Below are positions 29,706-31,093 of a stretch of DNA of 64,000 nucleotides, one piece after another; the stretch's first letter is position 1, and every line of letters starts with the position of its first letter. The DNA is from Escherichia phage LF82-1. The stretch is from the sequence record PV648359, one strand, 5' to 3'. The position numbers were made by a program, and so were the translations under genes. The notes under the pieces were generated by a model, which was given only the letters and a program-made list of their open reading frames with translations, did no database searches and was not told the DNA's origin.

Positions 29706-30008
29706 TTATTTACCTTTAATTACTTTAGCTGCTTCGATAGCCGCTTGCTGAAGGTCATCCATAGACATACCGAATTTAGAAGCAAAGTTATCAATTTTCT
29801 TTTCGACAGCATTCAAAGGCTTGGCCTGTTTACCTTCATTAGCGCCAGGAAGAGCGAGAATACGCTCTTTGTCAATATAAAGGCTTACAAGTTTCTTACG
29901 GTCTTTATCGGACAAATCATGAAATGAATGGGCCTTTTTATTTATAGCGGCTTCTAATTTACCTGCACTCACTCGCGCTTCAGTAATAAATTCTTGATAT
30001 GTTTTCAT
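29706..30008 (-). CDS. ipII: internal protein II-like (capsid-targeting N-terminus MKTYQEFI)
   Basis: 100 aa; close to T4 IPII as recalled. Confidence 0.75.
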   Translation of the reverse strand: MKTYQEFITEARVSAGKLEAAINKKAHSFHDLSDKDRKKLVSLYIDKERILALPGANEGKQAKPLNAVEKKIDNFASKFGMSMDDLQQAAIEAAKVIKGK

Positions 30009-30031
30009 TTTTTGTTTCCTTGTTTGTTTTG

Positions 30032-30066
30032 ATAGAGTAATTATACCATATTAATACTTAAGCGTA
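30032..30066 (-). promoter_or_regulatory. early promoter (GTTTAC-18-TATAAT) upstream of the ipII-like gene
   Basis: Both hexamers read on minus strand. Confidence 0.45.
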
Positions 30067-30072
30067 AACAAT

Positions 30073-30333
30073 TTAAGCTTTACCGCCAGAAATAATTCCG
30101 AAGTTGTTAAAATCGTATCCAATATCGTCAACATCTACTTTAGGATTTACTACAACATAAGCAATTTCACTACGTTTTGCATAGGTGTTGATTTCTTTAC
30201 CATCGCCACCTAAGAAAGAATACCCATTACGTTTTAATGAGCCAAAGTCTTCGGCATCACCAATGAAAGCTTTAACTTTAAATTTAGGACCTTTGGCATC
30301 TGCTTCAATGATAAATTCTTGATACATTTTCAT
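30073..30333 (-). CDS. internal-protein candidate (N-terminus MKMYQEFIIEA)
   Basis: 86 aa; capsid-targeting-sequence-like start. Confidence 0.6.
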   Translation of the reverse strand: MKMYQEFIIEADAKGPKFKVKAFIGDAEDFGSLKRNGYSFLGGDGKEINTYAKRSEIAYVVVNPKVDVDDIGYDFNNFGIISGGKA

Positions 30334-30339
30334 TTTTCC

Positions 30340-30753
30340 TTAGTAAATTGATTTACCATAGTATTTGTACCAAGTAGGACGTTGAGCAATTTTTTCATCT
30401 AAGCGTGCTTGACTTATCGCAACGGACGCTTCGGACGGGACATAATTATTACGAAATTCGGCAGGGATGTCGGAAATATCCTGGACTGTCGTGTCCTTGA
30501 TTTTGAAACCACGTTTCAAGCATTCAGCGATTAGCTCGATTTGTCGTAAACGTAAAAATTCAAGTTTGTCGTAAAAGAATGTTACGTGACCTGTGCCTAA
30601 GATAAATGTTGGAGAGATTTTAAAATCCTTTACACGTTTACCGTTTTGGACATGTTTACGGACTGCACTAAATACGCGTGGTAATTCACGATACTCAGCC
30701 ATAAGATGTTGATCGGTCAGTTCAGAAACAAGTGTTAAATTGATACGAGTCAT
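30340..30753 (-). CDS. denV: endonuclease V (pyrimidine-dimer DNA glycosylase) DenV
   Basis: 137 aa from [12 protein letters not shown]; near-identical to T4 DenV as recalled. Confidence 0.9.
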
Positions 30754-30758
30754 AATTT

Positions 30759-30810
30759 CCTCCAAGTAGTTGATGAATGTATAGTATCAAAACCCTTGGA
30801 GGAAGTAAAC
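30759..30810 (-). promoter_or_regulatory. early promoter (GTTTAC-18-TACTAT) inside an 8-bp inverted repeat whose distal arm holds the denV RBS
   Basis: CCTCCAAG…CTTGGAGG arms. Confidence 0.5.
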
Positions 30811-30811
30811 A

Positions 30812-31093
30812 CTATTTTTCTGAAGCGCCTGAAATATATTTTTCAAGACGTTGTTTCATCAGCGAGCCGTTCTTAGCGATTTCTTCCGGTTTATCGCACA
30901 TACGTAACAAGGCTTCAAGCTTAGCGATATCGCTGGTACGTTCAAATTTGCGAGTATCTATCTTACTAGCAAGTTCAGAAATACGTGCTAATAGACTTTC
31001 GGCTTCAACCAAAGCTGCACCTAGCTTAGTTGCAAATGTGTCAGTAGCTTCGTTAAGAATAGATTCTGATAAAAATTCACTATATGTTTTCAT
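30812..31093 (-). CDS. internal-protein candidate (N-terminus [10 protein letters not shown])
   Basis: 93 aa from second Met; ATGA overlap with lysozyme stop. Confidence 0.6.

Follow-up and report, generated by a model that had tools for sequence, protein, structure and literature searches.

Predicted internal head protein genes interleaved with denV and e in a T-even phage of the RB69 type

The window analyzed here, a stretch of 64,000 nucleotides (nt) of Escherichia phage LF82-1 DNA (record PV648359), encodes three small open reading frames (ORFs) of 100, 86 and 93 amino acids (aa) in the region occupied by denV and e. A first-pass annotation of the window read them as internal protein (IP) genes, each with an N-terminal capsid-targeting sequence (CTS), that lie on both sides of denV in an order unlike that of T4 and without ipIII. 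This arrangement raises two questions: are the ORFs genuine IP genes, and how did they come to be interleaved with denV, a non-IP gene, and with e? IPs reach the core by means of their CTS, which gp21 removes (PMC5694885, PMC3012670); in T4, about 1000 IP molecules lie in the packaged DNA and are injected (PMC3012670). Our analysis upholds the IP reading. We put at roughly 85% the probability that the three ORFs are the IP genes of a Mosigvirus, namely ipII, an ORF125c-type gene and an Ip5-type gene, brought into their present order by cassette shuffling.

The first line of evidence is the N-terminus itself. All three ORFs carry the conserved CTS motif, MK[T/M]Y[Q/S]EF[I/L]xE, at Met1. Compared with the T4 sequence MKTYQEFIAE, the 100-aa ORF is identical at 9 of 10 positions, the 86-aa ORF at 8 and the 93-aa ORF at 7. 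We scored every ATG, GTG and TTG in six frames of the window against this decamer, using as a null model 100 first-order Markov shuffles in which ATG starts alone were considered, with ORFs of any length. Six ORFs in the window match at 6 or more positions, five at 7 or more and three at 8 or more; the shuffles averaged 0.05 ORFs at the lowest of these thresholds and 0 at 7 or more. The six candidates counted by the first-pass annotation are therefore present, five of them solid (the three ORFs above, Ip7 and IpI) and the sixth, a 208-aa ORF, looser. A search of all six reading frames for the core K[TM]Y[QKSN]EF[IL] gave only five occurrences, every one of them right after an ATG and none internal. 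Because it is found solely in this position, the motif is no by-product of start-codon choice. The CTS codons are also conserved at the DNA level among the cassettes and in T4. Beyond the CTS, alignment detected no resemblance of the three proteins to each other or to IPIII.

Database searches agree with this assignment, as all three ORFs fall in PHROG families of internal head or virion proteins. Pairwise alignment with T4 IPII and IPIII gave a full-length IPII match for the 100-aa ORF, and the other two share the CTS alone. A sequence search of the PDB found no relative with E<0.3 for any of the three proteins, NCBIfam returned nothing for any of them, and Pfam returned nothing for the 86-aa and 93-aa proteins.

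The 100-aa ORF (29706..30008, minus strand) begins MKTYQEFITE↓ARVS, with a predicted gp21 cut at ITE↓A (here and below, the arrow marks a predicted cut) that would leave a mature protein of 90 aa and isoelectric point (pI) 9.7. It is 93% identical to T4 IPII over 100 of 100 residues (E=5e-66), 93.1% identical at the nucleotide level, and matches PHROG 7857, 'internal virion protein' (E=4.5e-55); in Pfam, it has a sub-threshold match to DUF7412 only. These similarities identify the gene as a true ipII orthologue, in agreement with the first-pass call of an ipII-like gene. T4 IPII (Ip2, NP_049734) likewise has 100 aa, the same CTS and I-x-E↓A motif and a place in the same e/denV IP locus. The two differ in setting: T4 ipII resides in a Tequatrovirus genome between denV and ipIII, whereas the gene here lies between vs.8 and the ORF125c-type IP gene in a Mosigvirus with arabinosylated cytosine DNA. 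They also differ at seven residues, which may affect the GmrSD(ECOR21) specificity reported for T4 IPII. As a separate observation, the ipII coding sequence contains a perfect late-promoter consensus, TATAAATA, at 29939-29946 on the minus strand, in codons for AINKKA. It is annotated as a late promoter in phage SA79RD, and it could drive late transcription of vs.8 or be fortuitous.

The 86-aa ORF (30073..30333, minus strand) begins MKMYQEFIIE↓ADAK, with the predicted cut at IIE↓A. Its product is 96.5% identical to RB69 ORF125c and matches PHROG 35655 (E=3.4e-26) as well as PHROG 2667, 'internal head protein' (E=8.9e-21). By tblastn, the protein is found in 217 phage records. Homologues retain Y4, E6, F7, I8 and E10 of the leader. 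The gene begins 7 nt past the denV stop codon, and the GGA of its ribosome-binding site lies 5 nt upstream of the first ATG. A second in-frame ATG occurs at codon 3, where the record of Escherichia phage LF82-2 starts the gene (84 aa, MYQEFI...). Homologues that begin with MKT have no codon-3 ATG. The 84-aa call, which clips the first two CTS residues, is an annotation inconsistency and not biology.

The 93-aa ORF (30812..31093, minus strand) encodes a protein 91% identical to RB69 ORF127c and 48% identical to RB15 Ip5 over 84 residues (E=2e-24 by tblastn against phage genomes). It also matches PHROG 3499, 'internal head protein' (E=2.1e-46). By these matches, it is a member of the Ip5 family; the closest known counterparts of this type are Ip5 of RB15 (CAA84462; from the IP set of Repoila et al. 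1994) and ipV of Yersinia phage PST. Like the 93-aa protein, RB15 Ip5 starts with a leader of the form MKT[YF].EF, and its residues 13-15 make up a motif of the cleavage type. An exhaustive HMMER search of 1.84 billion representatives gave six matches at E<=0.001, five of them short proteins (49-94 aa) starting MKT[YF] and the sixth a weak partial match in a 1212-aa protein. In Tequatroviruses, Ip5 belongs to the other IP locus, in the 57B-ipI-tRNA region, whereas here the gene is part of the e/denV locus and is joined onto the end of e. Its ATG overlaps the e stop codon (ATGA), and the gene is apparently translationally coupled to e.

If these leaders are propeptides, a gp21 site should follow each of them. 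The check proposed for the first-pass annotation, a search for [L/I]-x-E after the CTS, found ITE↓A in IPII, IIE↓A in the 86-aa protein and LSE↓S in the 93-aa protein, which also has LNE↓A; these are matches to a sequence motif only. Known gp21 cuts include ITE-6 and LTE-619 in Alt, and IP propeptides span 10-20 residues (PMC5694885). In IPII, the 86-aa protein, Ip7 and IpI, the leader site is the sole [LI]xE in the entire protein, as expected if internal sites are selected against. The 93-aa protein is more complex. Its N-terminus ends ...↓SILNE↓ATD, offering a cut after residue 10 or residue 15. Across the Ip5-type family, residues 5-12 vary (FLSESI, FLTVTT, and FYQNLS in RB69), whereas close homologues share an [L/I]NE↓A motif at residues 13-15 in which N14, E15 and the following A16 are invariant; RB15 Ip5 has ITE↓S at the same position. 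Because residues 13-15 are invariant and residues 5-12 variable, the physiological cut is probably after residue 15 and not after residue 10. The genes for the putative partners lie outside the window but are found in LF82-2 and in Shigella phage Shf125875; LF82-2 encodes both the gp21 protease (Peptidase_S77, E=1.2e-106) and the gp22 scaffold (T4_CASP, E=1.5e-89).

How, then, did the genes come to be arranged as they are? The 2.2-kb region, together with the surrounding 25-kb stretch, is 100% identical to LF82-2 and its siblings, and it is 99.7% identical to Shf125875 (Mosigvirus utam). These identities place the source phage among the RB69-like T-even coliphages of the genus Mosigvirus. Transcription runs on the minus strand in the order nudE, e, 93-aa ORF, denV, 86-aa ORF, ipII, vs.8, with the 93-aa gene upstream of denV and the 86-aa gene and ipII downstream of it. 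Read from the other end, the T4 order is vs.8-denV-ipII-ipIII-e and the order here is vs.8-ipII-86aa-denV-93aa-e, so both the placement around denV and the departure from T4 are as first described. The layout is the normal one for RB69-type Mosigvirus genomes. Among phage-collection records, 164 span at least 80% of 29500-31700, and 64 span the ipII/86-aa junction in one uninterrupted place.

T4 IPIII (Ip3, NP_049735; 193 aa) and AV114 IPIII, used as tblastn queries against the window, matched CTS codons only, and the 183-residue mature IPIII body had no homologue there. T4 IPIII therefore shares only the CTS with the window proteins. Near-identical Mosigvirus AV114, however, carries a 192-aa IPIII (92.7% identical to that of T4) between the 86-aa gene and ipII, which makes the absence of ipIII a presence/absence cassette polymorphism. 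In SA79RD, another near-identical Mosigvirus, an RB69-ORF124c-type gene lies between ipII and the 86-aa gene. As judged from these genomes, at least four cassette combinations occupy this single slot within Mosigvirus.

Comparison with RB69 locates the edges of one exchange. RB69 has the order vs.8-ORF123c-ORF124c-ORF125c-denV-ORF127c-e, and the window has the RB69 layout with ipII replacing ORF123c and ORF124c, both of which are themselves CTS-bearing (MKTYQEFIA and MKTYKEFIAE, respectively). ORF125c and ORF127c (NP_861815 and NP_861817) are the orthologues of the 86-aa and 93-aa genes, in the same denV-flanking positions and with the same ATGA overlap with e. In blastn, 96-97% homology to RB69 ends at 29631 and resumes at 29979, the last ipII CTS codon. 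The swapped segment (29632..29978, minus strand) thus holds the ipII body here and the ORF124c body plus ORF123c in RB69. Because homology resumes at the last CTS codon, the junction falls within the common sequence of CTS, ribosome-binding site and promoter. Indeed, the promoter region of ipII matches that of RB69 ORF124c almost base for base, and the RB69 homology block spans the promoter.

A second comparison, with T4, sets ipII apart from its neighbors. Nucleotide identity to T4 is 93% for ipII (over 29673-30021), compared with 84% for vs.8, 78% for denV and 71% for e/nudE. This contrast suggests that the two genera exchanged the ipII cassette relatively recently. We also considered a recent Tequatrovirus import of the whole locus and rejected it, as ipII alone stands out, with denV, e and vs.8 only 71-84% identical.

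Regulatory elements recur at the cassette boundaries. A T4-early-type promoter (GTTTAC, about 17 nt, TAnnaT) precedes each of ipII, Ip7, IpI and denV, and at the last three of these genes an evident stem-loop overlaps or surrounds the -10 box. In T4, elements of this type stand before ipII, ipIII and denV. A generic promoter/terminator scan was not enriched over shuffles (11 matches compared with 10.3 expected); from it we used only the match before ipII, which scored 10/12, together with cross-phage comparison. This promoter (30040..30068, minus strand) has a GTTTAC-like -35 box, a 17-nt spacer and a TG-extended TATAAT, and the stem-loop upstream of ipII is weak (z=-1.0). Directly downstream of ipII, between it and vs.8, lies a further early-promoter/stem-loop element (29648..29703, minus strand). 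Its stem-loop is seen in the fold, with z=-1.45 for the whole 113-nt fragment, and 29660-29703 shares 93% identity with the element that T4 has between e and ipIII, upstream of ipIII.

The element before denV (30758..30804, minus strand) is an early promoter with a stem-loop that folds at -19.5 kcal/mol (z=-3.4). Its 10-bp stem, TTCCTCCAAG/CTTGGAGGAA, surrounds the -10 box, and the denV Shine-Dalgarno sequence is paired within it, an architecture that T4 and RB69 share upstream of denV. In transcripts that read through from e and the 93-aa gene, the denV ribosome-binding site would be sequestered in this hairpin, whereas in transcripts initiated in the loop it would not. T4 gene e is known for the same hairpin logic. 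In the window, a hairpin lies over the e ribosome-binding site at 31579-31606 (z=-3.7).

Two hypervariable IP loci have been described in T-even phages, with over 30 variants of IPs and with early-promoter/stem-loop elements of a PeSL-like kind (PMC2839356), and the features seen here resemble them. As in the mobile regulatory PeSL and PeSL-like cassettes of T4-type phages (Arbiol et al. 2010, PMC2839356; Comeau et al. 2014, PMC4122927), an early promoter is combined with a stem-loop; here such elements flank the ipII and denV cassettes, and the swap boundaries lie in or beside them. Two differences are apparent. The elements here are of the AT-rich T4-early-promoter type, whereas the PeSLs of RB49 and phi1 are of a GGGG/CCCC sigma-70 type, and one breakpoint here falls in CTS codons, not in a regulatory element. 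Cassette boundaries at CTS codons and at early-promoter/stem-loop elements are consistent with the published T-even IP loci.

From these data we can outline how the proteins would work, bearing in mind that packaging, cleavage, injection and anti-restriction function are all deduced from homology. The N-terminal CTS, roughly 10-15 residues long, would recruit each precursor to the gp22 scaffolding core of the prohead. There, gp21 would remove the propeptide after the Glu of [L/I]-x-E, which is residue 10 for IPII and for the 86-aa protein and, most likely, residue 15 for the Ip5-type protein. The mature proteins, of about 8-10 kDa, would remain in the DNA-filled head, be injected with the genome and probably neutralize host defenses. 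By its 93% identity to T4 Ip2, IPII probably inhibits a modification-dependent (type IV) restriction enzyme of the BrxU/GmrSD(ECOR21) type. For the 86-aa and 93-aa proteins, our leading guess is that further GmrSD-family variants are the targets. Interleaving with denV and e and the missing ipIII would both result from cassette shuffling in one of the two hypervariable IP loci, via short repeated homologies in the CTS codons and ribosome-binding site and in the T4-early-promoter/stem-loop elements.

Published work makes such a function plausible. T4 Ip1, Ip2 and Ip3 are non-essential and each inhibits a distinct GmrSD enzyme; the authors propose a like role for other proteins of the two IP loci (PMC12373910). 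Mosigvirus DNA has arabinosylated cytosines (PMC13390438, PMC6024577). Phage NP, a Mosigvirus, is restricted by BrxU, an enzyme of the GmrSD family that cuts the arabinosylated DNA of this phage in vitro (PMC13390438). Because BrxU cleaves Mosigvirus DNA modified in this way, an Ip2 orthologue in this phage would make biological sense. More tentatively, the 86-aa and 93-aa proteins may be injected inhibitors of defenses not yet linked to IPs, such as GmrSD/BrxU-family or other modification-dependent nucleases that recognize arabinosyl-cytosine DNA, with the 208-aa protein as a possible third, unrecognized processed head or ejection protein.

Could the proteins be packaged for a different purpose? 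Instead of inhibiting defenses, they might serve a structural or DNA-associated role in charge neutralization, DNA condensation or ejection. The basic character of mature IPII, Ip7 and IpI (pI 9.0-9.7) would suit such a role, as would the large number of IP molecules embedded in packaged T4 DNA (PMC3012670). However, the pI of the mature form is close to neutral for both the 86-aa protein (6.4) and the 93-aa protein (6.3-8.1), all three T4 IPs have specific GmrSD targets and are dispensable (PMC12373910), and rapid cassette turnover between near-identical phages suits an arms race better. We therefore regard a purely structural role as unlikely and favor injected inhibitors.

Several observations weigh against reading the 86-aa and 93-aa genes as functional IP genes, and some of them would fit decaying or non-packaged relics with an inherited CTS-like leader, or early intracellular proteins. 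In RB69 ORF127c, the CTS is scrambled: relative to 31034-31093 of the window, the gene lacks 1 nt at nt 14 and has 1 extra nt at nt 36, a compensated -1/+1 frameshift that rewrites residues 5-12 from SEFLSESI to MNFYQNLS. Among the copies of the 86-aa gene in databases, several have a frameshift or break off after about 50-60 residues, which suggests that the gene is dispensable. The 93-aa protein contains further [LI]xE sites at residues 30 (LVE) and 40 (ISE) and would be fragmented if gp21 used them. Immediately before the three genes there is no late promoter of the consensus sequence (TATAAATA), the sole nearby match being the one inside ipII, and the 86-aa gene would be driven together with denV from an early promoter. 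Late supply to the prohead would then need read-through or early and middle transcripts. Literature searches on Mosigvirus or phage fHe-Yen9-01 yielded no virion proteomics for ORF125c- or ORF127c-type products, and N-terminal sequencing of the 86-aa and 93-aa proteins was not found in the literature. Structure prediction gave no functional lead either. The model of the 86-aa protein, built from a five-sequence alignment, was unusable (predicted local distance difference test score, pLDDT, 39), and that of the 93-aa protein was all-helical (pLDDT 72.6, predicted template modeling score 0.36), with nothing at E<3.8 in a Foldseek search of BFVD.

Even so, we consider relics improbable, somewhat more so than a structural role. 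Most homologues keep the CTS and the [LI]xE site while neighboring residues vary, as under selection for targeting and cleavage. RB69 ORF127c itself still has MKTY..F and LNE↓A, and the window and AV114 copies have an intact CTS; the scrambled leader reflects either a natural knock-down of the CTS or a mistake in the reference sequence. T4 ipII and ipIII also lie behind early-type promoters, yet encode bona fide head proteins. The frameshifted copies of the 86-aa gene may mean that it is often pseudogenized, or they may originate in read assemblies of low quality; some truncated entries do come from raw-read assemblies and may be errors. The remaining alternative, that the ORFs are unrelated small genes sharing an N-terminal motif through start-codon choice or chance, could appeal to an upstream TTG that would extend the 93-aa ORF to 98 aa and to the clipped LF82-2 gene call, but it is effectively refuted by the confinement of the core to ATG starts, the chance expectation of 0.05, the MKT homologues lacking the alternative ATG, the ribosome-binding site or ATGA overlap that suits the first ATG, and the DNA-level conservation of the CTS codons.

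The IP genes of this phage are not restricted to the e/denV region. Ip7 and IpI form the second IP locus, beside 57B. Ip7 (41563..41871, minus strand; 102 aa) has the CTS MKTYKEFINE↓A, matches PHROG 2667 (E=4.2e-42), aligns with RB15 Ip7 and is annotated as Ip7, similar to that of RB15. The IpI precursor (41935..42222, minus strand; 95 aa), annotated Ip1, matches Pfam IPI_T4 over residues 20-95 (E=1.4e-50), and its predicted cut, LTE↓A, falls after residue 19.

The weakest of the six CTS candidates, the 208-aa ORF (38537..39163, minus strand), lies outside both classical IP loci. Its looser leader, MYTFNEFLAE↓TEVITE↓A, has 6/10 CTS identities; the ORF starts MYTFNEFLAETEVITE↓AG and has two [LI]xE sites. 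About 36 nt upstream of the ATG, at 39199-39206, there is a T4 late promoter of the consensus sequence (TATAAATA). The leader, with Glu16 invariant, is retained by homologues from six phage genera, of which five belong to Tevenvirinae (the genera include Dhakavirus, Winklervirus, Tegunavirus, Karamvirus and Marfavirus). The gene is called 'hypothetical protein' in every record among the matches listed (138 matching phage genomes). We propose its product as a candidate unannotated processed head or ejection protein.

The non-IP neighbors are readily identified. DenV (30340..30753, minus strand), endonuclease V, a pyrimidine-dimer glycosylase, matches Pfam Pyr_excise (E=3.5e-14) and is 89.8% identical to T4 DenV and 98.5% to RB69 DenV. 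Gene e (31090..31578, minus strand) encodes a T4-type lysozyme with 82.6% identity to T4 gpe and a Pfam Phage_lysozyme match; the LF82-2 record labels it 'hypothetical protein', which is an annotation inconsistency and not biology. The region is bounded by nudE (31613-32071) and vs.8 (29053-29592), both also on the minus strand.

The genes described here are already in public annotation: RefSeq (NC_025437) labels IpII "internal virion protein" and the other two "internal head protein (similar to RB69 ORF125c / ORF127c)". Because they also fit the published picture of two IP loci, the locus is an already known, annotated instance of the IP-cassette polymorphism of T-even phages, and our finding confirms existing knowledge and does not extend it. 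Its interest lies in what IPs do for the phage. They are a pre-loaded counter-defense, entering the cell with the DNA before phage gene expression. An inventory of the IP cassettes of a therapeutic or model phage therefore helps host-range prediction, and for this phage the set comprises IPII, the ORF125c-type protein, the Ip5-type protein, Ip7 and IpI, with no IPIII.

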